DNA from: a phage
Length of the DNA stretch: 64,000 nt
Assembly: GCA_025611195.1 (NCBI GenBank)
Contig: GCA_025611195.1_4718.1
Strand: one strand, 5' to 3'
Shown here: positions 5,528 to 55,225 of the stretch, piece by piece
How the letters are laid out: the number at the start of each line of letters is the position of its first letter
Position numbering within the stretch: position 1 is the first letter of the stretch
The notes under the pieces: generated by a model
Told to the model about the DNA's origin: nothing
The model's database searches: none
What the model saw: the letters and a program-made list of their open reading frames with translations, nothing else
Made by a program: the position numbers and the translations under genes

Positions 5528-5551
5528 CACCTAGGTAATATAGCCGTGAAA
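5528..5551 (-). promoter_or_regulatory. conserved TATATTAC-containing motif (candidate phage promoter)
   Basis: Plus-strand CACCTAGGTAATATAGCCGTGAAA; about 25 nt upstream of ATG 5503 on the minus strand. Confidence 0.45.
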
Positions 5552-10476: not shown

Positions 10477-12933
10477 TTAAATAATCGTGACGTGTTCGTT
10501 ATACGTTTCAGGGAGGATGATGTTCGTTTTATCAAGAACCATACACTCAGCTTTACGGAATGATGCATGGTTGATAACATAGTGGCTGATGAACCACACT
10601 TGGCTTACGCGATGACCATCGACCAAACGACGAACAAAATCCATGGCATTAGATTGGTGCTGCGGATCAAATGTTGATGCGAATTCATCTAACATCAACG
10701 GATAATCCGTAAACCCCTTGTAATGCATCATCGCGATGATAAACGCGATATTGATAATTTCCTTTTGTCCCTTACTCCCATAAACAATATCTTTTCGCGG
10801 CGTCGGATACTTCTCAGTTAAAAGCGGAAAACGATAGTTCAATCCTTGCGCGTCGATAGCACACGGAAGTATCTGAAGTTGGTATTCCCAAATACTCGAA
10901 ATGATACCGTTCATGTATTCAACGAACGCGTTGATTGGACCAGCGATTGTTTCGGCAATCAATCCGTTGGATGGACTCAACTCATCCAGAACAAGTTGTG
11001 CGTAACTGAGCTGTTCTTCCACCTCTTTTTGCGTTGTTTCCAACTGAGCCAGAAGCTGCTGGTCGGTTTTAGCTTCCTGTAACTGCTGTTCGACATGACT
11101 TATCCGGCGAACCGTATCAGACATCGCAGCACGTAGTGATTTCGTGTAAAGATGCTGTAGATACTCCAACCACAGTTGCGTTAACGCTTTATCGCTACTA
11201 TCAGAACGTACCTGATCTTCCATAATCGCCGTAATGGTTTCCAATCTACCTTCCGTAGCTGTGATGGCTTGTGTTAACCGTTCAACGGTTGTTAACAACT
11301 CTGTCCTGTTCTTATAAAGCAGTTCTCGACGTTGCTGTAATGGTTCAACATCAACCGCTTGTACACGTTCGAGCATATCCTGAAGATGTTTACGTTCTTG
11401 CTCGGCTTGTGTATAACGCGCGAGTTTCTCGAATGCAAGCAACCAGTCGTTAATGATGCCAATACTGCGGAATCCTAAACCGTTTTTGCGGCCTTCTTCC
11501 AGCAGATTATCCCACATGGGTTTAATAGCGTAATAATCTTTCGTCCAACGCGTTAACTGACGATGCTGTTCCATCCAAAGCGTATAACGCTGCACCTTCT
11601 CATTAAGTTCGGCTAACGATTTCTCCTGTTCTTCAACCCAAGCGCGACCCTTCTGAATACGTTGTTCAATGCTCGCTTTGCTGGTCTTTTCTGTCTCACC
11701 AACATGAAAGCGATAATTGCATTTTGGACAGCTGGTCTGGGGTTGATGGTTAAGATGGTCAAGATGCGCTTCCAAATCGGCTAACGCGTGTTTCGCGTTA
11801 CGCAAACGCATTCGTGCCGCCTCTTCCTCCTTGATGTAAGCTTCAGCATCGTAAACATGATAGGTGTTGTCGGTATCAATCCATTCTTGCAATAGTTCCG
11901 TTAACGGAGCCTGAACTTGCGTGAGCTGTTGTAAACAAACCGCGGCGTCCAGATTCATCGTTAAAAGCTCACCTGGATGATCATGCTGAAGTTGTTCGTC
12001 CAAACAGGCAAGGCGGGCTTTAATCTGATCGATATCGCCTTCTCCAGACTGTTTCAACTGGTCAAGGATATTATCGATACCCAACAGCTCGTCAACCTGA
12101 CTTTCGAGTTTCGCATTCGCATTCGCGAGTTGCTCTCTTAGTTCAGCCAGATTCCGCTGTTCTTGTTGCGATGTTCCTCCTTGGTAACGAACAACCGCAC
12201 GAAGAAGCTCGCGATTAAAATGATGGGCACGTTGTGCGGATTCCAGAAGCTGTCGTTGATCAACATCGCTATCGAATAACGGCAATCCCATCATCGCTTC
12301 GAGCGCCGAGCGTTGCTGCTTTAACTCTGCTTCCAATCCCTGGTGGTCGGTTCCAGTGTATTTCGCTTCAATTCGCTGTGATGTTTCAACCAACTTATTC
12401 AATGTGTGCTCATTCACCGCTTTCAGTGAACGTACCTGTTGCTTAACAACCTGAAACAGCTCAAGCGCATAATCGACGTTAACCGGGCATATCTGCGTTA
12501 ATCGTTCGCGACGTTTCATCGGTCCCATTTCGGTGAACTGGTAAGCTGTTTCGTAACCTAACAACAAACGAATGGTGTCGTCATTAAGTTCGAAATGTTC
12601 TTCGATCAGTTTCCACTGGGCTGGTTGTGTGCCACCACCATTCAAGTTCTCACTGTCGTTAACGTAGAACTCGTGCTTAAACCCTTTTTCTAAACGACTG
12701 ATAAGACGGTATTGCTTATTACGGTGTTCGCAGCGGTACTCGTAATACCCGTCTTTATCAAAATCAGCGCGCTCGGGAACGGTTGGATACAGCAAAGGCA
12801 GTAGACTGCTCTTACCCGAACCATTACTACCTAGAATGAGTTGTACGGGATTATCTGGCCGGATGACCAGCTCCCGAATCATCCCGGTATCAAAACGATT
12901 GAATCCACGTAAGTGGAGATAGGTGCATCGCAT
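10477..12933 (-). CDS. SbcC/Rad50-like SMC-family ATPase
   Basis: N-terminal Walker A LILGSNGSGKSS, long central coiled coil with mid-protein CPKC zinc-hook, C-terminal Walker B LMLDEF and H-loop FISHY; start at 12933 or 12969 uncertain. Confidence 0.7.
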   Translation of the reverse strand: MRCTYLHLRGFNRFDTGMIRELVIRPDNPVQLILGSNGSGKSSLLPLLYPTVPERADFDKDGYYEYRCEHRNKQYRLISRLEKGFKHEFYVNDSENLNGGGTQPAQWKLIEEHFELNDDTIRLLLGYETAYQFTEMGPMKRRERLTQICPVNVDYALELFQVVKQQVRSLKAVNEHTLNKLVETSQRIEAKYTGTDHQGLEAELKQQRSALEAMMGLPLFDSDVDQRQLLESAQRAHHFNRELLRAVVRYQGGTSQQEQRNLAELREQLANANAKLESQVDELLGIDNILDQLKQSGEGDIDQIKARLACLDEQLQHDHPGELLTMNLDAAVCLQQLTQVQAPLTELLQEWIDTDNTYHVYDAEAYIKEEEAARMRLRNAKHALADLEAHLDHLNHQPQTSCPKCNYRFHVGETEKTSKASIEQRIQKGRAWVEEQEKSLAELNEKVQRYTLWMEQHRQLTRWTKDYYAIKPMWDNLLEEGRKNGLGFRSIGIINDWLLAFEKLARYTQAEQERKHLQDMLERVQAVDVEPLQQRRELLYKNRTELLTTVERLTQAITATEGRLETITAIMEDQVRSDSSDKALTQLWLEYLQHLYTKSLRAAMSDTVRRISHVEQQLQEAKTDQQLLAQLETTQKEVEEQLSYAQLVLDELSPSNGLIAETIAGPINAFVEYMNGIISSIWEYQLQILPCAIDAQGLNYRFPLLTEKYPTPRKDIVYGSKGQKEIINIAFIIAMMHYKGFTDYPLMLDEFASTFDPQHQSNAMDFVRRLVDGHRVSQVWFISHYVINHASFRKAECMVLDKTNIILPETYNEHVTII

Positions 12934-12960
12934 GCTATGATAATCCTTCTTCGATACCTT

Positions 12961-12976
12961 CTGAACCATGGTTCAG
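12961..12976. promoter_or_regulatory. perfect 16-bp palindrome CTGAACCATGGTTCAG
   Basis: In the divergent region between the SbcC-like gene and 13047..14135. Confidence 0.3.
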
Positions 12977-13046
12977 AATGCGAAGCTGAAGCCATACTTC
13001 AGCGTTATTTTCTATATCGTTATTTAAATCAGTAGGAGATTACAGC

Positions 13047-14135
13047 ATGAGCGATCTGGCAACAGACAACCGCACAAAAGGGAGTCAGTTAGCTCCAGAC
13101 AGCAACGTAAGCGTTTTCCGTATCTTTGCCTTGGGTACCGTTGCTGCCGACTTTTCCAATAAAAGTCTGGAGGAAGATCCGAACCAGGCGCTGGAGGTCT
13201 TTCTTGACGAGATGATGTCAGGTGCTGACGGGAAAGTTGAAGCGGCGGGAAGCGTGAAAGAAGTTAGTGCAACAGACGCTCAAGGGAACAGTTATACCGC
13301 AAAAGCGGCAACAACAACCAGCGTACAGTGTTACTGGTTACCCTTTGGTAGTAACCGGATGACAGCACCTAACTTGAGGAAAGGTCAGCGTGTGGTGGTC
13401 TGGCGTACTGCCGATGAAGAACAACTCTACTGGCAGCCCAAAGGAGGGGATAGTGAGCTGATGACCATGGAATCGGTTATCCTCACCGTCAGTGCACGTC
13501 CTAGCGCTAAGAAGGACCGTAAATCGATTTCAACGGAAGACTGCTATTACCTAATGGTTGATACCTTTCTTAAGAAAGCGGTTATCGGTACAAGCGCACA
13601 GCTTGGTGAAGTTACCCAAGTCTACATGGAACTTAATCTGGACGAGGGTTACTTACAGGTTGCGGACAGCGTCCATCAAAACCTACTATTGCTCCATTTT
13701 GTCGAGCATATGCTGCGATACCAAAACCAGGACGACAGCATTATCGACGTAACAAAAAAGAACATCACATTCCAATGCGAGGATACGCTCAAAGCAATCG
13801 CTAAGAACGATATCCGAATGAAAGCAAAAAATATTTATACGGAATGTGAGAACTTTGAACGTACCAGCAAAACAGAAAGCGTTACGAGTCAGAATGTTTC
13901 TTTGAAATGCGATCGCTACACCGCGCAAGTATCAGGACAAACCATATTCAAATGTCCGAATACGGTATTCACCGGAGCCGTGAGTTTCACTGGTGAAGAC
14001 GGAAACACGATGACATTGAACGGTAACTTCATACACGTCGCGGGATCTTGGCGTTCACCAAGCGGAACAAACGTGTACACTCACGACCACGGTGGTGTTA
14101 AATCCGGTAGTAGTAGAACCGACCCGTTTCAATAA
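13047..14135 (+). CDS. hypothetical protein (possibly structural)
   Basis: 362-aa ORF, AGGAG SD; beta-rich C-terminus ending in YTHDHGG; function not recognised. Confidence 0.5.
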   Translation: MSDLATDNRTKGSQLAPDSNVSVFRIFALGTVAADFSNKSLEEDPNQALEVFLDEMMSGADGKVEAAGSVKEVSATDAQGNSYTAKAATTTSVQCYWLPFGSNRMTAPNLRKGQRVVVWRTADEEQLYWQPKGGDSELMTMESVILTVSARPSAKKDRKSISTEDCYYLMVDTFLKKAVIGTSAQLGEVTQVYMELNLDEGYLQVADSVHQNLLLLHFVEHMLRYQNQDDSIIDVTKKNITFQCEDTLKAIAKNDIRMKAKNIYTECENFERTSKTESVTSQNVSLKCDRYTAQVSGQTIFKCPNTVFTGAVSFTGEDGNTMTLNGNFIHVAGSWRSPSGTNVYTHDHGGVKSGSSRTDPFQ

Positions 14136-14158
14136 AACAAAAAAGAAATATAACATAG

Positions 14159-14193
14159 CCTCCTTCCCCGGCCTTGGTGGCTAGGGAAGGAGG
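14159..14193. terminator. GC hairpin (family-like stem, different loop)
   Basis: CCTCCTTCCC/GGGAAGGAGG 10-bp stem; between convergent genes; A-rich run upstream. Confidence 0.45.
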
Positions 14194-14208
14194 ATTATAG
14201 TTTATTTA

Positions 14209-14598
14209 TTAACGCACTGCGTTCTGGATGATTTCTTTTCCGATCTTAACCAAAGCAGGTATCTGCACAGCGGTTGCGCCTCGATGACGAAACGCGGTCG
14301 TTAACGCGGTATCGATACTCACAGCACGTCCGTGGAGACGATCGAAATAGACTTGCGTGATTGCAGCAGCGTAATCCTTTCGCTGTTTCTTGGTTTGGTT
14401 TAATAGCGCCGCACTATGGCTAACGATGAAGTAAGCGATTAAGAAGAACGCCGCCGACCGCGAACCGGGTAGAAAACCTTGTCGCTTAGGAAGCATCTCA
14501 CAATCGCGAACAGTATTATCGTTCGCGAGCTCATCCATGTCAACGCAGCATAATTTTGCATAGGTGTGGAGATAGTGGGTAAAAGTTGAATTTAACAT
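14209..14598 (-). CDS. small hypothetical protein with one TM helix
   Basis: ORF 14209..14646 trimmed to ATG 14598 (GAGGA upstream). Confidence 0.45.
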   Translation of the reverse strand: MLNSTFTHYLHTYAKLCCVDMDELANDNTVRDCEMLPKRQGFLPGSRSAAFFLIAYFIVSHSAALLNQTKKQRKDYAAAITQVYFDRLHGRAVSIDTALTTAFRHRGATAVQIPALVKIGKEIIQNAVR

Positions 14599-14704
14599 GT
14601 TTCTTTCCTCGATTACAATGAGTTCAATGTATAGCTTAAACGTCACAGAACGACGTGTAGCGATTTGTTTTAATTTCTAAGGGGTTTCCTTATCTAAGAT
14701 TGAT

Positions 14705-15067
14705 TTAAAGCGTTCTGAAGAGTTCTGTATCGTTCTCGTCACGTAAACACGCTTCGTTCAACAATTCAGCTAACAACTTCGACCGAACTTCAACAAATGT
14801 CCTGAGGCGATGCTTCCATTCTAAACAGACGGTGTATGAACGATCTAACTTTTTGTGCTCGACGATAGATGCCGTGCAGTAGGTTTCGCGTTTATTCACA
14901 TCGTCCCAAACATCACGAATGATCGTCAAGCCTTTCTCAGTACATGTAAACGTTATAACGTAGTGATTGTTCGCTACTTCAACACGAACATCAGTAAATT
15001 CGTTTCGTAACGATGAGGTCTTAGTTAAACGATCAATAGCGAGCGATAAACCAACACGTTGTTGCAT
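14705..15067 (-). CDS. small hypothetical protein
   Basis: ATG 15067 with AGAGGGG upstream. Confidence 0.45.
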   Translation of the reverse strand: MQQRVGLSLAIDRLTKTSSLRNEFTDVRVEVANNHYVITFTCTEKGLTIIRDVWDDVNKRETYCTASIVEHKKLDRSYTVCLEWKHRLRTFVEVRSKLLAELLNEACLRDENDTELFRTL

Positions 15068-15068
15068 A

Positions 15069-15494
15069 TCAGATCCCCTCTTTCAGAATCTCATTAAGGC
15101 CGTCAGTAATCCAGTCGAACTTCGTCTTAATCATAGCTGGGGTCAATCCGTATACTTCCCACACAAGCTGTGGTTTATGTGTTCCATCGTCCAAACAAAG
15201 CACATCGATTGAGAGCATCATACCGCCCGTCAGTTTCATGTTCTCACAACTACGAAGATATGCGGATTCTAGCAATACTTTCCCTAACGCGGTGCAAGCA
15301 AACGTTAACCGGGAAGAATACATGTACGATGAAGTTTTACAGTAGGTTGCTGATATCGGTTGAATATGTTTGCGGAGTTTGGCGTCTTCACGTAAAAGCA
15401 GTAACGTGCGATGTAAACGCGTATGCTCGGTAACCGATGGGCTATATTCACCGATACGCTCTTCGACTACTGATTTAGGCCATTTAATTTCCAT
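15069..15494 (-). CDS. small hypothetical protein (MEIK- N-terminus)
   Basis: ATG with GAGGAAG upstream; abuts neighbouring genes. Confidence 0.45.
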   Translation of the reverse strand: MEIKWPKSVVEERIGEYSPSVTEHTRLHRTLLLLREDAKLRKHIQPISATYCKTSSYMYSSRLTFACTALGKVLLESAYLRSCENMKLTGGMMLSIDVLCLDDGTHKPQLVWEVYGLTPAMIKTKFDWITDGLNEILKEGI

Positions 15495-15509
15495 GTTATC
15501 TTCCTCGTA

Positions 15510-15953
15510 TTAACACTGTGTTCCATTCGATAAGCGGGTGGTATCAAAACGATCCAGTTGGTGTACAATGCTATCAGCAACACGATGCAAATAGTGTATT
15601 TTGTCCATTCGTGAAATCGCAGAAATCGTCCAGCAAGCCTCTGACGTCCAATAGGTGCCGTCTTCACTAAGGCTAACGTTATAAACTAACTTCGTCATCA
15701 CATTTCTCGCCTTATGCTCAGCAGACCAGAATATGTTTTCTAACACATCCTTCCCCGTTTGTGAAAACACGAACCCAAGCTTCACGTCGAAGTCGGATGC
15801 TTCAAGATTAACGCAGTGAAGATGATTCTCTAACGGCGCAAAAGAGGCTAAACGTTCCAGCGCATGTTGCAGTGTGGGATGATCGAGCTTTTCGAGATCA
15901 TCCACAGGTTGTTCAGGTACAATCGCGATCGATTTACAGAATTTAATTTCCAT
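15510..15953 (-). CDS. small hypothetical protein (MEIK- N-terminus, possible paralog of 15069..15494)
   Basis: ATG with AGAGGA upstream; same N-terminal MEIK start and similar length to neighbour. Confidence 0.45.
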   Translation of the reverse strand: MEIKFCKSIAIVPEQPVDDLEKLDHPTLQHALERLASFAPLENHLHCVNLEASDFDVKLGFVFSQTGKDVLENIFWSAEHKARNVMTKLVYNVSLSEDGTYWTSEACWTISAISRMDKIHYLHRVADSIVHQLDRFDTTRLSNGTQC

Positions 15954-16065
15954 GGTAGGTTCCTCTTGATAGTGGTTGATGATAGTAACGGGGACGGCGA
16001 TGTCCCCTTGGTTTCTTATTGCCCCGCCCGAACCCGATGGGGTACAGGCGGGTGATGTTGATGCG

Positions 16066-16473
16066 TTATAGCGGCATCAGACGTTCTTTAAGTTGGGTTA
16101 ACTTATTTGCAACGATGTTCTCAACGCCGATCATCTTGTTCATGTTGTCGAGGGTATCCTGCCAGATGAAAATATCCACGGAACCGGTTCCGACTAACGC
16201 GTTCTCAGGACGATGGTCACGGGTCACGTAGCGTGGTCTCTGCGGGCAGGTTTGTAACTCGATCCAAAGCGCATCTAACGGACCACGGTCCGTGACACCT
16301 AAGGCGAAGAATTCACCTCGTACGACCAGAACATCATCAGCCGTCCTGACGCGGGTTGATCCTTCGTACACCAATTCCATCTTTGCTCGACAGGCTGGGT
16401 TCTCGTTCCACGCCTGGACGGCATCGGCAAGGGCTATTGACGTTGCGGTGGTGTTCGTTTGATCATGTTGCAT
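16066..16473 (-). CDS. small hypothetical protein
   Basis: ATG 16473 with AGGAG upstream. Confidence 0.45.
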   Translation of the reverse strand: MQHDQTNTTATSIALADAVQAWNENPACRAKMELVYEGSTRVRTADDVLVVRGEFFALGVTDRGPLDALWIELQTCPQRPRYVTRDHRPENALVGTGSVDIFIWQDTLDNMNKMIGVENIVANKLTQLKERLMPL

Positions 16474-16550
16474 TCTAAGCTCCTGTAACGCTATCTAAGC
16501 GTCGTTTTAAGTTAAGGTATAGTTTCCCTTCCTTGGGTTCGTTTATTGCG

Positions 16551-16826
16551 TTACACGGCTTTACAGCTTGCGTAAACCACAACTGTTCCGTTGTTGATTG
16601 CCTCAACAACATCCTGGGTCAGTTTGGTCGCGAGTTTATTATCCGCACTCGGTACGTAATAACCTTCCCCTGTTTCAGTGACTAGGCGATAACGTACTAA
16701 TCCTACCGCACGCTCGACGCGTATCACCTTTTCAAGTTTGTATTTGATGATCTTCGTCAGGCTGACGGCGTCTGATGCGTAGATTGCTTTATAAACCTTG
16801 TTCTTTGCTGTCGGTTTCATCAACAT
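16551..16826 (-). CDS. small hypothetical protein
   Basis: ORF 16551..16889 trimmed to ATG 16826 (AAGGA upstream) to avoid overlap with the upstream gene. Confidence 0.4.
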   Translation of the reverse strand: MLMKPTAKNKVYKAIYASDAVSLTKIIKYKLEKVIRVERAVGLVRYRLVTETGEGYYVPSADNKLATKLTQDVVEAINNGTVVVYASCKAV

Positions 16827-16848
16827 GGTTTCTGTTTTCCTTGGTTTA

Positions 16849-17682
16849 TCACGATGCCAGGTCAGCGATATCCCAATGGGTATAACCAACCTCGCGGATG
16901 AGCTCTGCTGTTTCTTCGAACAGTGGGGTAGGGCTAATGACCGGTAACCATTTCCCCTCTCGGGTTATCTTGACTTCGACGGTCTGTAAGTTCGTGTTCC
17001 AACGAACATCATAAACCAGCGCATAGCCAAGAGGATGAACAAGTCCATCTTGGTTAAATGTCTCCAAAAGACCTCGTACGTCTTCTTCGTAGGATGTTTT
17101 CGACAAGACAGCACGTACTCGTCGCAGTCTCTTCGTGATAACCTTTCCCAGCTCGATGCTCTCCCAGCCTGTCATGACGCAAGGATTGTCATCACGACGA
17201 AGAGACCGAGAAATATAAATAGAATCGCTCGCGGTAAGGTGTACCCACCCAAGATCGCAGTATGCGACAGGTCGTGGTGATTCTCCTTCGATAACCGTCG
17301 GTTCATCCAACATCGCCACAACACCGCAGTCTGCGAACTCCGGCGATACTTCATCCAGCATCTTAATACGGCTTTCTTGGCCGGTATGGTCAGGATCAAC
17401 ATGCGCGTAGTAGTAATTAGGCTCTATCGCACGGTATTGCGCAATACGTCTACGGAAGTCAGGATCCTGCATTCCCAGCGGATGGTAATACGCAAGCTGT
17501 TGCTTTATACCATCCTTGATTACCAACAGAAGATCTTCGCGATCTGATGCGGGATCTTCCACCACGATGTATTTAACAATCGCTTTCAGGTTCTTAACGA
17601 TGTTATCCGGAAGTTTCTCGATATCTCGAGCATCGTAGACGCGGTTAACTACAGTGCTTACAAGGTGTTTTGATAGGCTCAT
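16849..17682 (-). CDS. hypothetical protein, paralog of 18039..18821
   Basis: C-terminal VHPLGYALVYDVRWNTNLQTVEVKITREGKWLPVISP aligns with VHPLGFAWVSEVRYNPRKKRVEAKVLNERWLPVVQP of the other gene. Confidence 0.5.
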   Translation of the reverse strand: MSLSKHLVSTVVNRVYDARDIEKLPDNIVKNLKAIVKYIVVEDPASDREDLLLVIKDGIKQQLAYYHPLGMQDPDFRRRIAQYRAIEPNYYYAHVDPDHTGQESRIKMLDEVSPEFADCGVVAMLDEPTVIEGESPRPVAYCDLGWVHLTASDSIYISRSLRRDDNPCVMTGWESIELGKVITKRLRRVRAVLSKTSYEEDVRGLLETFNQDGLVHPLGYALVYDVRWNTNLQTVEVKITREGKWLPVISPTPLFEETAELIREVGYTHWDIADLAS

Positions 17683-17751
17683 CGATGATCTCTCTTTGTT
17701 ATTTCTACCGATAACTCGGCATAAGGGGACAATGATGTCCCCATGTTCATG

Positions 17752-18042
17752 TTAACTCCCTCTGTGGCATGAAAACAGAGCGTCTAATTGCTCCCGTTGT
17801 TCTTTTAAGTATGCGGGAAGCTGGTCTTCCCGTACCGTTCCGATTTCCAACGTGATGTACCAGCGTTGTTCGGAAGCCTGCCATTGAAAACTGCTCTGTA
17901 ACCTCAGGATGTTGGGATCGTGTACCATGCTTGCGCTGTAACGGTTGAACCAATTCAGGTATTCTGCTTTCCCTTCCTCGTCGGCAACGTAACGCTGCAC
18001 GCTGTTCTTCCCTTTGTTCTCGTATCCTGTTGCACGTATCAT
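17752..18042 (-). CDS. small hypothetical protein
   Basis: ORF 17752..18096 trimmed to ATG 18042 (AGGAG upstream, ATGA overlap with upstream stop); an alternative frame 17747..18091 is also open. Confidence 0.4.
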   Translation of the reverse strand: MIRATGYENKGKNSVQRYVADEEGKAEYLNWFNRYSASMVHDPNILRLQSSFQWQASEQRWYITLEIGTVREDQLPAYLKEQREQLDALFSCHRGS

Positions 18043-18821
18043 GCGAACGTTTCTCCTGTAACGTGTTGTGGGCGTTGTAGCATGGTAGCATCCCATTGTA
18101 CGATCCGGCTCCGGCTTACCCGCATCATGATGGATTCATCGTCAAGCCCTGGTTGCACAACCGGTAACCAACGTTCGTTAAGCACCTTCGCTTCAACCCG
18201 TTTCTTGCGTGGGTTGTAACGCACCTCGCTAACCCAAGCGAATCCAAGCGGATGGACCACCCGTGGATAATACATGCGAAGCAATTGATGCATCCGATCC
18301 AGTACCTCCAGGTCAGCATCGGTCAGGTATGGTTTCACCATGGTAAGCTTTTTGGTGTAATACGTTCCGGTGGTATGATTGATCCAACCAGGAAGCACGT
18401 GATGGAACCCTACCTGTAATGGCGTATCCCCGTTCACCTTCAACCAACCGTATCGCCCTGTCGCACGTCCCTCATCGTAAGCAACTTGTGCAAGCTGATC
18501 GATGAACGCACGATCGGTGATCTCGATGCGTTCCACCCGTTCATCCAACGCACCGCGTACCACGAATCCGCTCGCGCTCATCCGCGCAGGATGCTGGCTG
18601 CGATGCGCGTACCAATTCTTGTTGCCGGTAAGCAGGTAAGGGTACGTGTGAGCACCCCGCCAAACAACCGTTCCGTTCGTCCCATCAACACAGTGTACAT
18701 ACATCCCATCTTGACCGTTGTTGTAGCATGCTACCTTCACGCATTCGTTTTGAACATCGCTCGGTAACGCCAGGTATTCACCTTCGGTAAACATGGTATC
18801 AAAAATGATTTCGTCGTTCAT
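18039..18821 (-). CDS. hypothetical protein, paralog of 16849..17682
   Basis: ATG 18821 with AGAGGA upstream; first gene downstream of the AT-rich region. Confidence 0.5.
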   Translation of the reverse strand: MNDEIIFDTMFTEGEYLALPSDVQNECVKVACYNNGQDGMYVHCVDGTNGTVVWRGAHTYPYLLTGNKNWYAHRSQHPARMSASGFVVRGALDERVERIEITDRAFIDQLAQVAYDEGRATGRYGWLKVNGDTPLQVGFHHVLPGWINHTTGTYYTKKLTMVKPYLTDADLEVLDRMHQLLRMYYPRVVHPLGFAWVSEVRYNPRKKRVEAKVLNERWLPVVQPGLDDESIMMRVSRSRIVQWDATMLQRPQHVTGETFA

Positions 18822-18911
18822 CTAAAAAAGATCCTCTGTTTTTCACGTTAATTAAACAACGTATTGATTTCTATTTAACGCAATACGAACATTGTACGTA
18901 TGCATCATGAA

Positions 18912-18929
18912 GGTAATATAGTCGTGAAA
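18912..18929 (-). promoter_or_regulatory. conserved TATATTAC-containing motif (candidate phage promoter)
   Basis: Plus-strand GGTAATATAGTCGTGAAA; about 90 nt upstream of the first gene of the small-gene cluster (ATG 18821). Confidence 0.45.
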
Positions 18930-19031
18930 GGATTTGCATTAAAGCAAGGGTTTTGTTTTAAGAAGGGATGGATTTAGAAGAGGTGTTTCAAGGAAGGTAA
19001 ACGAGGATAGGTATTTTGATTTAAGTAAGAT

Positions 19032-19396
19032 GTTATCTGTATTTGTTAAAAGTGTATTGTCTATGTTATCTTGTTTATCTTAGGTTATGTCTTATTGTTT
19101 AATCGTTTTATCTTTGTAGGTTAAATTGTTCTAGTTATCTTGTTGTATAAAGTAATTCAATAAGCTTATCTTCAAAATGATAAATAACTTGTGTTTATTG
19201 TACATGCTAATCAAAAAACCATTTGTGATACTCTTCTTCACGTTGTTCATCAGAGTATCTCGTCTATACTCATTGCATTCGTATACGACATAACCGTTAT
19301 ACGCTAACGCTACGCTTATAGCTTGATAACTCTAAGGATAAAAACATAAACTCGCTTCGCTCGTTTAGTTTTTCTTTTTCTTAGAGTTATCTTGTT
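19032..19396. repeat. iteron-like direct repeats (GTTATCTTGTT) in AT-rich non-coding region
   Basis: Exact 11-mer at 19065..19075, 19134..19144 and 19386..19396, plus at least four degenerate TTATCTT copies at 19032..19180. Confidence 0.5.
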
Positions 19397-19557
19397 GCTC
19401 GTCTCTAAAGGACTTCGCTCCTCCCCCGTCCCCCGAAGGGGCCGAGGTCGTGGAAATTTTACTTTCCAAATACATTTACAACATCTGTAAACTTTTACTC
19501 CAGGTACTTAATCTTATCATTAGAAATTATAAAGAGAAGAATAAACACAAACATAAA

Positions 19558-19589
19558 CCTTCCTCCAACCCAACAGGGAAGGAGGAAGG
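19558..19589 (-). terminator. conserved two-tier GC hairpin (family copy)
   Basis: CCTTCCTCC/GGAGGAAGG stem, loop AACCCAACAGGGAA; directly after stop of 19603..20496. Confidence 0.45.
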
Positions 19590-19602
19590 GGATTAATTAA
19601 AA

Positions 19603-20642: not shown

Positions 20643-21185
20643 ATGGCCTTAGACTTTAACAAAGCAGCCAAATCCCTTCTGCTTGATCTTATCAACACCA
20701 AAGCAACCCGCCCACTGACTGAAGAAGAACTGCAGTTCGGTACTCCGGGAGCATCTTCCGAACATGAAAAGAACACCGTTATCCAGCTGGATGCTGCAGC
20801 TGAAGCAGCTAACCTGCAGGGTACTCAGCAGTTCTACTACGATCGTCTGGCTCTGTCCGAAGTTTTCGCTGATGTAACCAGCGATGTTACTTTCGAACTG
20901 CCGCACGGCACTGACAGCATTAAGGCTTCCGAGCTGGTAAGCAAGCTGGTCACCAAATTCGGTCTGGCTTCCCTGACCGGTGAAATCAATGAAGAAACCT
21001 TCCAGCTGTCTGCTGGCACTGTTGGTGAAGTAACCCTGACTGCGATCGAGGGTGGTCTGGTATATACCGGCACCCTGCAGGTTGCACTGACCTACGCACC
21101 AGCACCGAAAGACGAACTGGCAACCGTTCTGGCGAATAACGTAGCTGAAGGTTTCGTGAAACCTGAAGTTGCTGTCGTTGGCTAA
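20643..21185 (+). CDS. abundant small structural protein (short member of the same paralog family)
   Basis: Strongly biased codon usage (CTG, GGT, ACC, GAA) like the capsid gene; motifs FYYDRLALSEVF and GGLVYTGTLQVALTY; GAGGA SD; double stop codon. Confidence 0.6.
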   Translation: MALDFNKAAKSLLLDLINTKATRPLTEEELQFGTPGASSEHEKNTVIQLDAAAEAANLQGTQQFYYDRLALSEVFADVTSDVTFELPHGTDSIKASELVSKLVTKFGLASLTGEINEETFQLSAGTVGEVTLTAIEGGLVYTGTLQVALTYAPAPKDELATVLANNVAEGFVKPEVAVVG

Positions 21186-41014: not shown

Positions 41015-43573
41015 TTACTGCTCTTCACGTTCCAACAGATACTCGGAAGCGGTAATACCGTTTACCGTACGTACTGCTTTCAGACGAGTATCATCACTCA
41101 GAATCACGGTAACAGACTGCAGACCTTTTACTTTGGTCTCGAAGGTCTTGAATACCTGATCCAGCATACGAGCAATGCTTGGGTTGGTTGCAGCCGATGC
41201 GTGAGTGTAACCATTCTGGTTCAGCTTCAGAATCTTGGCGTTGGTTGGTACACGAAGAACAACATGCGGACGCATTGCGAACACACTGTGGTTAAACCAG
41301 TAAGCATCGTTACTATCTTCGTCGGTGACGATGTCTGGATTAACACGCATGTCTTCGGTAGCCGCGTCTGCCAAACGACGTTCGATTTCGTCAGCATCCA
41401 GAGAGCCGTCCTTCTCCAGTTCTGCACGATACTCACTCATGGCAACCAGATGACGTTCACGATTCGCTGCAGATTTTTCGTGAGCGGCTTTCAGGTAGTC
41501 ATGCATGTTGTACAGTTCTGCTATGGAAAGACGAATGTTCCACTGACCTTCGCCGTCACGATTGCAGTAGAGACACTTCAGCATGTTGACCCAGGTGTAG
41601 TAGCAATTGGAGAACTCATCTTCAATGAACTTTTGATCCATTTTAAGATCGTGAATCAGCCAACCGGACAGTTCTCCGATATCATCAACGAAGCTAGAGA
41701 TGGTGGTTTCAGAGAAGTTCTTCGGTACGATACGTTTGATCAGCTTGTTAACGTCTTTGGTCATGCTATCGTTCAGGAAATGCCAAATACGCAGAGGGAT
41801 GACGTCACGATACTGTTGCATGATCTGACGATAAGCTTTGATATCGTCGCTACGACCTTTATCAATAGACAACGCGTCCAGGAATTCATGGATAGCATCC
41901 AGCTCTTTGTCGGTATAGGTTCCCAGATAGGAATTGACCGTGGCAAGGAATGCTAATGCGTCGTTTTGGTTGACGTCAGTGTTGGTCTGCTGAATGATCG
42001 CTACTGCAGCTTTGGTTTCAGCATCCTCAACGCTTGACGCTGCGATCGCGTCGGTAACAGTAAACAGTTTCATTTCGCGCTGTTCGCCGACAACGATCGG
42101 TTCACGTTGAATCGGTTTGTTAAGACTAACGCGAACAACTTCTGCTTGCGCGATACGATCCAGTTTTACCATTTCCTGCTCTGCCATACGACGAGCGGTT
42201 GGATCTGATTCAAGTTCGATGTATTCCACTTCTTCCTCCGTGAGGGATGTAATGTCAACAATGGTTTCATGAAGAATTCCGTTTTCGTCGATACGTGCTC
42301 GACGAGCGAAGTGTCTGAAGTCATACAACGTTGGCCAGCGACAATTCGGCGCGTAGTCTTTGGCCTTCAAACGCATCTGCATAAATTCTTCATGTTGAAC
42401 AACACGACCGTAACGCTTAGCATCTTCGGTCGCATCAATTGGATTAACGGTCTTTGTTACCGTAGCGGAACGAGCCGTACGAATGGGTTCCGGTTTAGTC
42501 TGCACAGGTTCAGGTTGAACGGATTTCTGTTGTCCGGCCTTAACATGCCATTCGGGTTCTTCGTACCGTTCAGCAAATTGCTCGGCTGCTGCAAAGATAT
42601 CATTGATGCCACCAATATCTCCTTCTGGGTTCGTCGAATATACCCGTGGTTGCGGTGCCTCATAACGCGGCGCTGCGGTAGCAGGTGCGTCATTAACGAT
42701 AGGATCGTCATCACCAACATCGTACAAACGGTTGAACGCACAATCCTTCGAATCGATATACGATGGAGCTTGTGGTTGGATAACCGTCGGTCGAGGCTGT
42801 GCGCCGTATCCCGGCATTGTTGGAGCCATACCACGCATAACTGCCGGGTTAGGTTGGTATTGTGGTTGTGGGTAGGTTCCACCATACGTGGGATATGCGG
42901 GCTGTTGCGGTTGACCGTACCCACCGCCAACCATCGCATTTGCTTGCGGCCCACGGTAAGTCATCCCCAGTTGCATTACCTGCTGCTTCAGACCACGGGA
43001 CTTCTGCGCTATTTGCGCTAGACTCCCACTTTTATTTAGCTGCGTGTACTTATTCGCGGCTTCCGGGTTAATGCGCGATAATTCAATCGCACGATAATAT
43101 TCCGGGTATTGATTGGCTTCAAAGAGCCAGGTTACGAGGTGATACAGCGCAACTGTGCTCACAGCAGCAGAGACGATCTGGTCGTTGGACGCATTCTGCG
43201 GCATCGGGTTGATGTAAGAGAATACGTTCCAACAACAGTCTTCAACAAGCGATTCCATCATCATATCGTTATTGGTGTAACGTGCGACGAACTCGGTTTG
43301 TATTTTATCCTGTTGGGCGAAGTCTTTCAGGACATTGAAGACGGCTTGACGGATTTTGACGATCGTCGCTTCTTGGGTGATGAAGTTATAGTTCTGCTGA
43401 TATGATGGTTGTTGGTACTGTGGTTGTTGATAGGTGTTATTCGGGTATGCGCCGTACGGTGGTTGCTGGTACTGTTGCTGGCGAACCTGCTCAGCCGCAT
43501 AATTAATCGTGCTCGCATAAGGGTTTTCGCTGTAGCCCATTTGCTGATACATGTTGTTACTGCCATTATACAT
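41015..43573 (-). CDS. large protein with Q/P/Y-rich low-complexity regions
   Basis: 852-aa ORF; N-terminus and a central segment are QQPxYG-type low complexity. Confidence 0.55.
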   Translation of the reverse strand: MYNGSNNMYQQMGYSENPYASTINYAAEQVRQQQYQQPPYGAYPNNTYQQPQYQQPSYQQNYNFITQEATIVKIRQAVFNVLKDFAQQDKIQTEFVARYTNNDMMMESLVEDCCWNVFSYINPMPQNASNDQIVSAAVSTVALYHLVTWLFEANQYPEYYRAIELSRINPEAANKYTQLNKSGSLAQIAQKSRGLKQQVMQLGMTYRGPQANAMVGGGYGQPQQPAYPTYGGTYPQPQYQPNPAVMRGMAPTMPGYGAQPRPTVIQPQAPSYIDSKDCAFNRLYDVGDDDPIVNDAPATAAPRYEAPQPRVYSTNPEGDIGGINDIFAAAEQFAERYEEPEWHVKAGQQKSVQPEPVQTKPEPIRTARSATVTKTVNPIDATEDAKRYGRVVQHEEFMQMRLKAKDYAPNCRWPTLYDFRHFARRARIDENGILHETIVDITSLTEEEVEYIELESDPTARRMAEQEMVKLDRIAQAEVVRVSLNKPIQREPIVVGEQREMKLFTVTDAIAASSVEDAETKAAVAIIQQTNTDVNQNDALAFLATVNSYLGTYTDKELDAIHEFLDALSIDKGRSDDIKAYRQIMQQYRDVIPLRIWHFLNDSMTKDVNKLIKRIVPKNFSETTISSFVDDIGELSGWLIHDLKMDQKFIEDEFSNCYYTWVNMLKCLYCNRDGEGQWNIRLSIAELYNMHDYLKAAHEKSAANRERHLVAMSEYRAELEKDGSLDADEIERRLADAATEDMRVNPDIVTDEDSNDAYWFNHSVFAMRPHVVLRVPTNAKILKLNQNGYTHASAATNPSIARMLDQVFKTFETKVKGLQSVTVILSDDTRLKAVRTVNGITASEYLLEREEQ

Positions 43574-47031: not shown

Positions 47032-47055
47032 CACCTAGGTAATGTAAGCGTCAAA
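47032..47055 (-). promoter_or_regulatory. variant of the conserved motif (candidate promoter)
   Basis: Plus-strand CACCTAGGTAATGTAAGCGTCAAA; about 150 nt upstream of ATG 46881. Confidence 0.35.
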
Positions 47056-47089
47056 TTTTTTCTATTTATAACGATAAACGGCATAGAAA

Positions 47090-53312: not shown

Positions 53313-53383
53313 TTTACCTTTCTATGTTAGGTGGATTGCGGATAGAAGAATCAATGCATAAACTAATTTAAGTTTGTTAAGGT

Positions 53384-54286
53384 TTACTTAGCCTTTGAGT
53401 TATGCGGACTAACATGCTGTTGTACTCGTTGGATTGTATCGTAGTACGGGTTAGATTGGTTGAACATGTTGTTGTGTGGGGGATAGCCATATGGCGCATT
53501 TTGCCTTGTTGGTGAGAAACCTTGTTGAGAAGGACGGTTTGAATTAACCGCGAGTACGTAGTAAACCAAATTTTGACGGTCGAATGTTCCTTCGTTTTTG
53601 AAAGTGTCGGCGTAGGCTTTTACCGCTGGAGTGAGCCTATCACCATCGGCTGTAATAATTGTACCGTCTGGGTAAACTTCCCGAACGACGCACCATGTTC
53701 CGATGAGAACATCTTTAGGTGCTGTATTACCATATCCGGTTGTAACGGTAAGGTAAGTATCGAACCCTTCAGAACAACAAGGATGACGATAGATGGGTCC
53801 TGTCATTTCCGTTCTATCGGTATCGCTACATTGTTCTATTGAGAGCGATGATGTGTCGGTTTTGAAATTGTCAAATTCTTTCTTTAAGTCGATTACGGGT
53901 TCTTTCGTATAGTACTTCTTGATTGCTTTGACGTAAAGATCAGGAACGGTTGTCAGCAATCCGTTATACCTGATTCTCAGGTTTTCGAGTAATCCAAAGA
54001 TGCTCGCGCATGCCTGTTCGCGAGGTTTTGTAAGATAAGAGATCCCCTCAGGAACGCTGGGATCTTTGAGAAAGAAGATTGCGTTATTGTCGTTGTGCGA
54101 TGCGTTGAAGAAAACGATTGATTCGATATATACGGAGCATAGGCTGTCATTGGCGTCGTCAGATAACACCCAGATGCACTCATCGGTCGTCTTGTTTAAA
54201 AGTTCTGTTTTGTCGACCAAACGTTGTTTCATTGCGAGGAAATGTGCCTGTTGTTCAGCAGTTAATTCACGATAAATAGTGGTCAT
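53384..54286 (-). CDS. hypothetical protein, paralog of 54372..55145
   Basis: ORF 53384..54364 trimmed to ATG 54286 (AAGGAG upstream); shared segment YRHPCCSEGFDTYLTVTTGYG...WCVVREVYPDGTIIT vs YIHPECHTTYDRYLTITGG...WRMIREIYPDGRIVT. Confidence 0.5.
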   Translation of the reverse strand: MTTIYRELTAEQQAHFLAMKQRLVDKTELLNKTTDECIWVLSDDANDSLCSVYIESIVFFNASHNDNNAIFFLKDPSVPEGISYLTKPREQACASIFGLLENLRIRYNGLLTTVPDLYVKAIKKYYTKEPVIDLKKEFDNFKTDTSSLSIEQCSDTDRTEMTGPIYRHPCCSEGFDTYLTVTTGYGNTAPKDVLIGTWCVVREVYPDGTIITADGDRLTPAVKAYADTFKNEGTFDRQNLVYYVLAVNSNRPSQQGFSPTRQNAPYGYPPHNNMFNQSNPYYDTIQRVQQHVSPHNSKAK

Positions 54287-54371
54287 GTTGGGCTCCTTGA
54301 TTACGATAAGGATGATTGCGGTTTTGTGGGTTTGGTAGGGCCCTAAACAAAGGAACCCTACCAATATTAGG

Positions 54372-55145
54372 TTAATCAGGATCGGCGTAGAAATGGTGAG
54401 GATAGCCGGAGTACGATCCTGCGTTACCGGCTATGGATTCTTTCTGGGAATCGACGACGAGCGCATAGAACTGTCGGGAATTTGTTAGCGTTGAGAAATA
54501 AGCGGAAAGGACTTTTTCATTCAATGCATCACAAGGTAGGCAGGTGCGACCGCAAAACGTCACGATACGGCCGTCAGGATAGATCTCACGAATCATTCTC
54601 CACTCACCGATATCCACTGGTGATGGCGCTGCTACACCACCTGTTATCGTTAAGTAACGATCGTACGTGGTATGGCATTCAGGATGAATATAGATCGGCT
54701 TGTTCGTTTCGACAGGTTCCGAAGTATCTCGACGACTAAGAAGCTCAACGACTTCAAGATAAATCGTTGGTAGATCGCGGAGAATACCGGTGCTACGACG
54801 TTTCTTTGTGATTCGCGGACGAATCTCGTTGAGAGCGTATTCGAGCTTACGTTCAGCTTCGTACGCATCGAGTTTTATCAAGCGACCCGGTTCATCGGAA
54901 TGATCCTGAGTTACGTAAACGAAATACGTGTCGCCTTTTGCAGCGTGAAAGATTCGAGCGACCTTAAATGTTTCTACGGTACGATAACCAAGGCGCGATT
55001 GATTTTCCACAGGAGAAAATATCCAATGCCGTCCTTCGTCAGCCTCAACAATTTCGTTGAAACTATCTGTCTGTTCTGGGACCTGGTAGTCAGCCAGTAA
55101 TGTGTCGAGAGCATCATCAGCCAGTTTGATGTAAATATCTGTCAT
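54372..55145 (-). CDS. hypothetical protein, paralog of 53384..54286
   Basis: ATG 55145 with GAGGA upstream; preceded by the TATATTAC-type motif and a palindrome. Confidence 0.5.
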   Translation of the reverse strand: MTDIYIKLADDALDTLLADYQVPEQTDSFNEIVEADEGRHWIFSPVENQSRLGYRTVETFKVARIFHAAKGDTYFVYVTQDHSDEPGRLIKLDAYEAERKLEYALNEIRPRITKKRRSTGILRDLPTIYLEVVELLSRRDTSEPVETNKPIYIHPECHTTYDRYLTITGGVAAPSPVDIGEWRMIREIYPDGRIVTFCGRTCLPCDALNEKVLSAYFSTLTNSRQFYALVVDSQKESIAGNAGSYSGYPHHFYADPD

Positions 55146-55201: not shown

Positions 55202-55225
55202 CACCTAGGTAATATAGTCGCGAAA
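55202..55225 (-). promoter_or_regulatory. conserved TATATTAC-containing motif (candidate promoter) overlapped by a palindrome
   Basis: Plus-strand CACCTAGGTAATATAGTCGCGAAA; about 57 nt upstream of ATG 55145; inverted repeat GTGATAACA-N8-TGTTATCAC at 55179..55204. Confidence 0.45.

Follow-up and report, generated by a model that had tools for sequence, protein, structure and literature searches.

A candidate early host-interaction module of nine small, mosaic genes in a Goslar-like jumbo phage

Several early proteins of phage phiKZ, of the small and group-specific type, act on host machinery, and in the hyperplastic regions of T4-type phages small novel genes are flanked by promoter and stem-loop cassettes. 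Early operons of phiKZ-like jumbo phages consist of an AT-rich promoter box followed by a one-strand run of small group-specific genes (PMC7598289), and the virion polymerase of such phages uses as its early promoter a conserved AT-rich motif of ~10 nt that lies 5' of these operons (PMC7598289). Here we describe a locus in a 64,000-nt stretch of phage DNA (the window) that sequence comparison assigns to a phage related to Goslar (Escherichia phage Goslar), a chimallivirus, or nucleus-forming jumbo phage, of E. coli. It shares this layout and would belong to the early-operon type known from jumbo phages, and its homologues in Goslar, gp014-gp021, are already annotated as hypothetical.

Unlike phiKZ-like early operons, the Goslar-like operon is embedded among structural genes and carries two tandem, copy-variable paralog families, and its proteins show no similarity to phiKZ proteins in sequence or structure. 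It resembles T4-type hyperplastic regions in having small, fast-evolving cassette genes in a conserved backbone, with conserved stem-loops at cassette edges, but one upstream promoter would serve all the genes and the hairpins carry no promoter motif. Variable small paralogs among structural genes, two of them with a common N-terminal peptide, also recall the T4 internal and phiKZ inner-body proteins (PF12699), from which the cluster differs in its lack of the PF12699 domain, its virtual absence from virions and its early-type promoter.

Gene content and operon structure

An earlier, sequence-only reading of the window had described nine back-to-back minus-strand genes, each with its own Shine-Dalgarno (SD) sequence and none with a recognizable domain, and this description holds. 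All nine open reading frames (ORFs) were found (Table 1), 9/9 with an SD-like GGAG/GAGG box 5-10 nt 5' of the ATG, and Pfam, PHROGs, PADLOC and NCBIfam were blank for every protein, Pfam at E <= 1 returning nothing but two chance-level matches to unrelated families. For g1, the program-made ORF reaches a GTG at 14646; the SD belongs to the ATG at 14598, which is also the start annotated in Goslar and in 5/5 related contigs. This protein has a hydrophobic 19-mer (residues 48-66, Kyte-Doolittle maximum 1.85) and may span the membrane, whereas the cluster proteins are predicted to be mostly soluble.

Because the intergenic gaps are short, each gene has its own SD and a hairpin with a T-run closes the array, we read the nine genes as one operon. 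The terminator stem is followed by its T-run on the minus strand, the hairpin is kept in all seven genomes that we compared (the window phage, Goslar and five related contigs, L002-L006), and the Goslar record annotates a terminator at the same position. The locus is 91% identical in nucleotides to Goslar 11023-15810, and its genes correspond to Goslar gp014-gp021 plus one extra gene, g7, that is missing from Goslar; the Goslar orthologues of the other eight are 72-99% identical, with order, promoter and terminator alike. Neither the Goslar record nor the publications consulted give a function for gp014-gp021. Neighboring genes are structural, namely homologues of the tail-spike gene gp013 and of the fiber genes gp022 and gp023. 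Directly upstream of the cluster lies an unrelated, almost invariant non-coding element of ~310 nt.

The ORFs are real coding genes, as judged from dN/dS values of 0.04-0.6 for orthologues in the six other genomes (never >1, the 0.6 resting on very few substitutions) and from LC-MS/MS peptides for the homologues of g3, g4 and g5. Only g4 against Goslar yields no ratio, since it has zero synonymous changes (dS 0.0). No known homology, variable presence and raised dN/dS might instead suggest decaying or selfish filler without function for the phage, but we consider this extremely unlikely: almost every comparison gives a dN/dS far below 1, SD sequences, reading frames and gene order are kept over at least 14 loci (the order despite copy-number changes), and both paralog families give confident AF2 models in addition to the peptides for three homologues.

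Table 1. Features of the cluster and its edges, in order of transcription where stranded (window coordinates)
Feature	Coordinates	Strand	Description
Probable early (virion RNA polymerase) promoter	18911-18929	minus	TTTCACGAC-TATATTAC-CT; 19-mer motif, kept in 7/7 genomes
Conserved 5' leader	18822-18910	minus	Promoter to g9; alignable in 7/7 genomes
g9	18039-18821	minus	260 aa; family A, subfamily A1; homologue of Goslar gp021
g8	17752-18042	minus	96 aa; homologue of Goslar gp020; ATG overlaps g9 stop as ATGA
Hairpin GGGGACATCATTGTCCCC	17725-17742	minus	Upstream edge of g7 cassette
g7	16849-17682	minus	277 aa; family A, subfamily A4; no Goslar orthologue
g6	16551-16826	minus	91 aa; homologue of Goslar gp019
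g5	16066-16473	minus	135 aa; homologue of Goslar gp018
Two GC-rich hairpins, g5-g4 gap	15990-16052	minus	Gap MFE -36.4 kcal/mol
g4	15510-15953	minus	147 aa, starts MEIK; family B; homologue of Goslar gp017
g3	15069-15494	minus	141 aa, starts MEIK; family B; homologue of Goslar gp016
g2	14705-15067	minus	120 aa; probable third, more divergent family B member; homologue of Goslar gp015
g1	14209-14598	minus	129 aa, pI 9.5; homologue of Goslar gp014
Terminator hairpin	14136-14199	.	17-bp GC-rich stem; common to converging tail-spike gene (gp013 homologue)

Paralog families and mosaic variation

The cluster contains two paralog families, A (g9 and g7) and B (g4, g3 and probably g2), and four singletons. 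Paralogy of g7 and g9, already claimed from the sequence, was borne out by BLASTP (36% identity over 85 aa, E 2e-11) and extends to full-length homology in an hhalign profile-profile alignment of 236 columns at 98.5% probability. The two neighbors that had been noticed for their MEIK start, g3 and g4, are also paralogs, which explains their common N-terminus MEIK(W/F)xKS, seen in no other cluster protein. Alignment of family B with g2 (hhalign 88%, E 3e-6, 101 columns) and reciprocal HMM matches of 5e-4 and 2e-3 make g2 a probable third member; family HMMs found no additional members over the rest of the Goslar genome. Copies per genome range from 1 to 4 for family A and from 1 to 2 for family B, so that full-length homology coincides with differing counts in collinear genomes, as in a tandem paralog family with copy-number variation.

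Across 48 sequences, family A falls into four old subfamilies that are 17-42% identical to one another; two residues, H190 and D244, never vary, and H73, T156, N203 and E210 hardly do. Structure prediction, which had been proposed as a check, gave confident AF2 models for both families and no anti-defense fold: the g9 model (pLDDT 79, pTM 0.80) matched nothing among solved and viral structures, and the g4 model (pLDDT 84, pTM 0.80) has matches to TYW3-like and Rpb11/alpha folds that look like generic fold resemblance. We rejected a TYW3-like/UPF0130 methyltransferase (identity <=8%, conserved catalytic and SAM-binding residues not found); identity to the Rpb11/RNA polymerase alpha dimerization fold is likewise <=8%. 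The invariant columns of family B (L28, L41, F61, G67 and W108) are glycine and hydrophobic or aromatic residues only, and thus no catalytic motif is kept.

These genes appear to be restricted to Goslar-like phages. With g1, g3 and g5-g9 as tblastn queries against 50,697 phage records, Goslar was the sole match, g9 being 83.5% identical to gp021 and g7 reaching Goslar solely through that paralog, at 29% identity. The 23 relatives of g9 all come from Goslar-like phages, g7 has 14 relatives that are 32-97% identical, and a family A profile retrieved only 7 representatives from 1.84 billion proteins. Other nucleus-forming phages yielded no homologues, whether by profile and structure for family A or by tblastn for 7/9 genes, and no cluster protein resembles known anti-defense or defense families in sequence or fold.

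Flanking core genes are 95.6-99.7% identical across relatives (dN/dS 0.01-0.07), whereas cluster genes are 35-99% identical, with dN/dS of 0.1-0.47 in most comparisons; the island proteins evolve 5-20 times faster than the flanks. The best-conserved cluster gene is g1 (87-99%); g6 is 69-99% identical, g3 is 47-57% identical to orthologues outside Goslar, g5 matches Goslar at 97% identity and L003-L006 at 34-40%, and g4 is 99% identical to Goslar, 98% to L006 and ~50% to L002 and L003, and is missing in L004 and L005. Presence varies as well, with g1, g2, g5 and g6 in 7/7 genomes, g8 in 6/7 (L006 is without it) and a 145-aa gene present or absent among relatives. Against L002, dS jumps between adjacent genes, with 2.3 and 1.4 set against 0.18 and 0.10. 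Together these patterns point to a mosaic island in which cassettes are gained and lost and divergent alleles are swapped by recombination. We sought dN/dS >1 both pairwise and regionally and found none; diversifying selection is thus not demonstrated, and relaxed constraint with recombination would look alike.

Hairpins sit at cassette edges. Wherever a genome carries a g7-type gene, a GGGGAC-N6-GTCCCC hairpin lies 5' of it, and Goslar, in contrast to the window phage, lacks g7 and its preceding hairpin together. The same hairpin occurs in the g5-g4 gap of 6/7 genomes, the gap in L006 having the variant stem GGGGATAC-CGCT-GTATCCCC.

The same comparisons bear on the idea that the cluster encodes necessary, group-specific factors of the infection cycle, for example ones that act in the early-infection vesicle, in assembling the nucleus, in importing proteins or in exporting mRNA, and that these factors diverge by co-evolution with phage proteins. 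Such factors would fit the purifying selection on all cluster genes, the fixed order, the occurrence in all genomes of g1, g2, g5, g6 and one or more members of each paralog family, and a promoter type common to chmA and non-virion RNA polymerase genes. Yet allele swaps and losses are tolerated (Goslar does without g7, L004 and L005 without g4, and L006 without g8), the other nucleus-forming phages searched as above have no homologues, and known nucleus factors belong to the shared core genome, according to PMC10299810; we therefore regard this explanation as unlikely.

Early-type promoter and virion content

The motif previously reported at 18912 proved to be a minus-strand TATATTAC box (18913-18920) that is part of a longer element. 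Alone, the box is not enriched in the window (3 found vs 1.9 expected), whereas the extended 19-mer TTTCACGACTATATTACCT, at <=3 mismatches, occurs three times vs 0.01 expected, all three copies being intergenic and on the minus strand; a variant of it lies at 47046. Its position 5' of the first cluster gene is kept in every genome compared, and in L005 and L006 a ~45-nt insertion follows immediately 3' of the promoter, within the leader. Goslar has ~12 copies of the extended motif, every one on the minus strand and intergenic, including one at 172978, 73 nt upstream of the nuclear-shell gene chmA, one at 160791 upstream of gp175 and one at 43266 upstream of gp040-gp039; gp175 and gp039 are labelled non-virion RNA polymerase in Table S4 of the Goslar virion paper (10.64898/2026.04.21.720040).

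Because the motif is common to the cluster, to chmA, whose transcripts are present 5 minutes post infection, and to non-virion RNA polymerase genes, it is probably an early promoter of the virion RNA polymerase. By the account in PMC7598289, such promoters are recognized by a conserved AT-rich motif of ~10 nt that early operons of one genome have in common, and the 19-mer fits this. Two observations bound what this implies. In Goslar, 175/249 genes (~70%) are expressed already at 5 minutes post infection, so 'early' by itself says little on function, and the motif also precedes gp214, an abundant virion protein gene, which makes it compatible with products that end in virions.

The sequence-only reading had named late expression together with products in virions as what would speak against a takeover role, and we looked for the latter in the published Goslar virion mass spectrometry (Table S4 of 10.64898/2026.04.21.720040). 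There, LC-MS/MS peptides were found for gp016, gp017 and gp018 (homologues of g3, g4 and g5), four of them for gp017, corresponding to ~0.6, ~18 (12-29) and ~4 copies per virion, respectively; gp014, gp015, gp019, gp020 and gp021 are missing from the table. ChmA and PhuZ, which are not virion proteins, read 84-268 apparent copies in the same table, and the authors' list of virion-associated proteins is without gp014-gp021 products. Being absent or far below this contamination level, the cluster products do not count as meaningful parts of the virion, and this speaks against a structural role.

Could the products nevertheless be packaged and injected with the DNA, like T4 internal or phiKZ inner-body proteins? 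Structural genes (gp013 and gp022/gp023) flank the cluster, inner-body genes form paralog families too, the MEIK N-terminus of g3 and g4 recalls a capsid-targeting tag, and gp017 was seen in virion preparations at its estimated 12-29 copies. We nonetheless find packaging very unlikely, given that 5/8 Goslar homologues are missing from the virion table and the other three lie far below ChmA and PhuZ, that the promoter is of early type and that the products go unlisted among virion-associated proteins. Inner-body or injected head proteins were likewise rejected as a specific identification: none of the nine proteins has the PF12699 domain, and none reaches a high virion copy number.

Possible roles in infection

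That these are early, non-structural accessory genes is well supported, the early timing itself being suggested by the shared motif. Group-restricted, fast-evolving, mosaic and copy-variable genes between conserved flanks are the usual signature of host interaction, and we lean, by a small measure, toward a single early transcription unit that serves as an accessory host-interaction module of Goslar-like jumbo phages. The earlier profile of early takeover or anti-defense genes thus stands as regards the early-type promoter, near-absence from virions and group-restricted fast evolution, but likeness to known anti-defense proteins is lacking. A host-takeover or anti-defense role as such is one that we infer; as a fast-evolving island of genes limited to one phage group, the operon is a plausible source of such proteins, as candidates.

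In such a module, the injected virion RNA polymerase would initiate at the TTTCACGAC-TATATTAC promoter (18911-18929), transcribe the nine small genes, each translated independently, and stop at the hairpin and T-run (~14136-14199). The products would be non-structural proteins peculiar to Goslar-like phages that bind or modify variable targets of the host or of competitors, such as defense systems or host machinery. These targets would be encountered in the vesicle and early-nucleus phase, with separate paralogs covering separate targets.

Rather than acting against the host, the island might serve competition among phages, by superinfection exclusion or by incompatibility of co-infecting Goslar-like phages; this would account equally for fast mosaic evolution with variable copy number, and nothing found here separates it from the anti-host reading. 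Goslar-like lineages that circulate side by side in the same hosts are numerous (237 genomes in 38 species; PMC12768965), and PMC11620839 documents a competition function between nucleus-forming phages for another gene. No nuclease, membrane-exclusion or similarly suggestive domain was found in the cluster, however, and we rate competition as quite unlikely.

Within the host-interaction reading, we can also envision a bolder and rather doubtful scenario, in which family A has an undescribed fold and acts as an enzyme or inhibitor, its 1-4 paralogs each neutralizing a different host defense or factor and forming, together with family B binders, the main host-range and counter-defense repertoire of these phages. 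If true, this would explain how a fast-evolving early arsenal is still needed even though a protein nucleus already shields the phage DNA.

Gene content and relatives of the cluster

The nine minus-strand genes g1 to g9 are best read as an accessory operon that is early and non-structural and encodes proteins with variable interaction partners, of either host or competing-phage origin. Escherichia phage vB_EcoM_Goslar, a nucleus-forming jumbo phage (chimallivirus) of 237 kb, is the sole megablast match to window 14000-19600 (91% identity, 83% query coverage). Its genes gp014-gp021, all annotated as hypothetical, are the counterparts of the cluster; g7 has no Goslar orthologue and falls within the unmatched 17%. 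The tail-spike gene gp013 lies on one side and the DUF7941 fibre genes gp022 and gp023 on the other.

All nine ORFs were recovered, each with its own ribosome-binding site (GGAG/GAGG type), as the sequence-only reading had described them. The g8 start overlaps the g9 stop as ATGA, and the best start of g1, the ATG at 14598 (129 aa), is also the one called in Goslar and five related contigs. The genes are real, since dN/dS is below 1 in every informative orthologue comparison, AlphaFold2 models are confident for both paralog families (pTM 0.80 each) and LC-MS/MS of Goslar virions detected peptides from the homologues of g3, g4 and g5. The absence of a recognisable domain, also claimed earlier, held across Pfam, PHROGs, PADLOC and NCBIfam, which match none of the nine proteins, and PDB sequence searches returned no match for any of them.

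Relatives are confined to similar phages. When seven genes (g1, g3 and g5-g9) were queried by tblastn against 50,697 phage records, each matched Goslar alone, and a search of 5.8 billion proteins gave 14 (g7), 23 (g9) and 26 relatives, all on 235-250-kb Goslar-like contigs from assemblies of E. coli, Shigella or Salmonella, or from metagenomes. These sources fit a recent survey that found 237 Goslarvirus genomes concealed in bacterial assemblies (PMC12768965). Full-text literature searches yielded nothing relevant for the promoter box TATATTAC or for the Goslar gene numbers, and no mention of gp14-gp21 was found in Goslar papers.

Coordinates of the cluster genes and associated features in the window
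Feature	Position	Strand	Remark
g1	14209-14598	minus	
g2	14705-15067	minus	
g3	15069-15494	minus	family B
g4	15510-15953	minus	family B
g5	16066-16473	minus	
g6	16551-16826	minus	
g7	16849-17682	minus	family A, subfamily A4
g8	17752-18042	minus	
g9	18039-18821	minus	family A, subfamily A1
Promoter motif of the cluster	18911-18929	minus	19-mer holding TATATTAC
Further promoter-motif copy	5533-5551	minus	motif match
Further promoter-motif copy	47039-47057	minus	motif match
Further promoter-motif copy	55207-55225	minus	motif match
First GGGGAC-N6-GTCCCC hairpin	17725-17742		stem invariant, loop variable; at variable-cassette boundary
Second GGGGAC-N6-GTCCCC hairpin	15990-16007		stem invariant, loop variable; at variable-cassette boundary
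Variable spacer	18990-19200		
Invariant ~310-nt element	19210-19520	minus	non-coding
gp023 homologue	20643-21185		DUF7941
Insertion relative to Goslar	53361-55140		1.78 kb
Insertion gene	54372-55145		257 aa
Insertion gene	53384-54364		326 aa

Probable early promoter and operon anatomy

The operon looks early-expressed. As promoter evidence, TATATTAC alone was set aside (3 seen against 1.9 expected, not enriched), and significance came only with the extended motif TTTCACGAC-TATATTAC-CT, which occurs 3 times in the window against 0.01 expected. With a fourth, variant copy at 47046, all four are intergenic on the minus strand and face genes; those downstream of the three further copies are homologues of Goslar gp004, homologues of gp040-gp039 (a non-virion RNA polymerase subunit) and a third operon. 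The complete Goslar genome holds about a dozen extended motifs, always intergenic on the minus strand and facing genes. One stands 73 nt upstream of chmA, the nuclear-shell gene, and others precede gp175 and gp040-gp039; the virion study labels gp175 and gp039 non-virion RNA polymerase subunits (10.64898/2026.04.21.720040). All of these have to be expressed at a stage when the phage's second polymerase does not yet exist, and chmA transcripts are present by 5 minutes post infection. A conserved AT-rich motif of ~10 nt upstream of early operons has been reviewed as the virion-polymerase early promoter of these phages (PMC7598289). Ahead of the first cluster gene, motif and leader are conserved in 7/7 genomes (the window, Goslar and the related contigs L002-L006). 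Contigs L005 and L006 carry a ~45-nt insertion just downstream of the TATATTACCTTCATGAT promoter box (alignment A6 columns about 878-920) that holds a second element, TTACCTAGGTGA-like in L005 and TTACCTAATTGA in L006.

Within the cluster, sigma-70 promoters and intrinsic terminators showed no enrichment over shuffles, and the 3' end of the operon is a strong hairpin with a T-run, common to the converging tail-spike gene. GGGGAC-N6-GTCCCC hairpins precede the g7-type gene and the first family B gene. Both positions are also occupied in L002-L005 and the second in Goslar, which lacks the first along with g7; in L006 the stem at the second site is a variant. Such hairpins could serve transcription attenuation or RNA stabilisation, or could be recombination points.

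The DNA immediately upstream of the promoter region includes a non-coding stretch of ~310 nt. It is single-copy, matches Goslar at 99.4% identity and is almost 100% invariant in the seven genomes, although nearby core genes have dS of 0.05-1.8. Its minus strand folds with an MFE of -92 kcal/mol (z -5.6 against shuffles; plus strand z -4.0) and terminates in a hairpin followed by TTTTTT, near 19210. It has no Rfam match at E <= 1 and contains no tRNA or tmRNA. It is a candidate for either a new non-coding RNA of the phage or a DNA element that acts in cis. Between this element and the early promoter is a spacer that differs widely from one relative to another, both in length and in sequence, and holds 5-6 AGATAA(C) repeats, described earlier as iterons.

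Virion content and paralog families

Late expression together with presence in virions would indicate structural roles, and we checked the virion half of this against LC-MS/MS data published for purified Goslar virions (10.64898/2026.04.21.720040, Table S4). Five homologues (gp014, gp015, gp019, gp020 and gp021) are missing from the virion protein table, and the other three are estimated at about 0.6 (gp016), 4 (gp018) and 18 (gp017) copies per virion. In the same preparation ChmA and PhuZ, which are non-virion proteins, reach 84-268 apparent copies; readings so far under theirs mean that detection of gp016-gp018 reflects proteins made, not packaged. A virion or injected-protein role was accordingly rejected as the main explanation, and a non-structural character of the cluster is well supported.

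The paralogy noticed between g7 and g9, which share 36% identity over the C-terminal 85 residues, extends further: profiles built from alignments of 15 and 21 relatives are homologous across 236 columns (98.5% probability). Clustering the cluster proteins of the seven genomes gave family A (19 members, 249-297 aa), family B (12 members, 137-147 aa, g3 and g4 among them) and single-copy groups; g2 probably belongs to family B as a third, more divergent member. Family A comprises four old subfamilies with mutual identity of only 17-42%, and HMM searches of the Goslar genome and the window found no members of either family outside the cluster. A kinship of g6 with the family A N-terminus was dropped at an hhalign probability of just 15%.

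Family A has no known fold, and both families are without known relatives; the family A profile had seven matches among 1.84 billion representative proteins, all in this phage group. H190 and D244 are among the residues invariant in family A, and H73, T156, N203 and E210 are nearly so, which would be compatible with an active or binding site. The invariant columns of family B are one glycine and hydrophobic or aromatic residues, and we read this family as a binding scaffold, not an enzyme. TYW3-like and Rpb11-like fold matches of family B were judged generic resemblance.

Variability and proposed role of the operon

No other stretch of this region, which is otherwise 95-99% conserved, varies as much as the cluster. 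Among relatives, identity is 95-99.7% and dN/dS 0.01-0.07 for the flanking genes gp011, gp012, gp013 and gp025, against 35% to 99% identity and dN/dS mostly of 0.1-0.47 for cluster genes. Relative to L002, dS is 2.3 for g4 and 1.4 for g3, yet 0.10 for g5 and 0.18 for g2; relative to Goslar it is 0.0 for g4 and 0.2-0.7 for its neighbours. Such jumps between adjacent genes indicate, on sequence comparison, that alleles have been replaced by recombination. Gene order is fixed as A1, g8, (A2, A3, A4), g6, (145-aa gene), g5, (B1), B2, g2, g1, where parentheses mark variable genes, and family A is single-copy in Goslar and in three further contigs, has two copies in the window and reaches three or four in the remaining cases. 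No dN/dS above 1 was found, pairwise or regionally, and diversifying selection is at most plausible.

Variation also occurs elsewhere. The gp023 homologue is ~50% identical in L003 and L006, with neighbouring genes above 84%; gp023 is an abundant fibre protein, and this divergence agrees with the virion study, where DUF7941 fibres are proposed to act in host recognition. A second variable island adjoining an early promoter is formed by the 1.78-kb insertion, which lies directly downstream of the promoter copy at 55207-55225 and whose two genes have no Goslar homologue and no Pfam domain.

The main rival reading holds that g1, g2, g5 and g6, which are present in every genome examined, encode group-specific factors that the infection cycle needs. 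The most conserved of the nine, g1, is basic (pI 9.5) with one strongly hydrophobic 19-residue segment, SAAFFLIAYFIVSHSAALL (Kyte-Doolittle 1.85), and may encode a small membrane protein. An accessory operon agrees in kind with the host-takeover or anti-defence genes first suggested, and takeover, anti-defence and exclusion are specific activities that we infer.

The DNA of nucleus-forming jumbo phages is protected from most defences that target DNA. This operon may bear on the question of what other host systems such phages have to counteract and which proteins they use for it. Because it looks early and non-structural, forms the most variable stretch and encodes two families without known relatives, it offers a short, concrete candidate list to screen by knock-down or expression, in an E. 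coli phage already open to genetic manipulation, and the 237 natural Goslarvirus genome variants are usable for association tests (PMC12768965). If the genes are dispensable on laboratory hosts and needed on certain wild strains, they would point to new pairs of defence and counter-defence.
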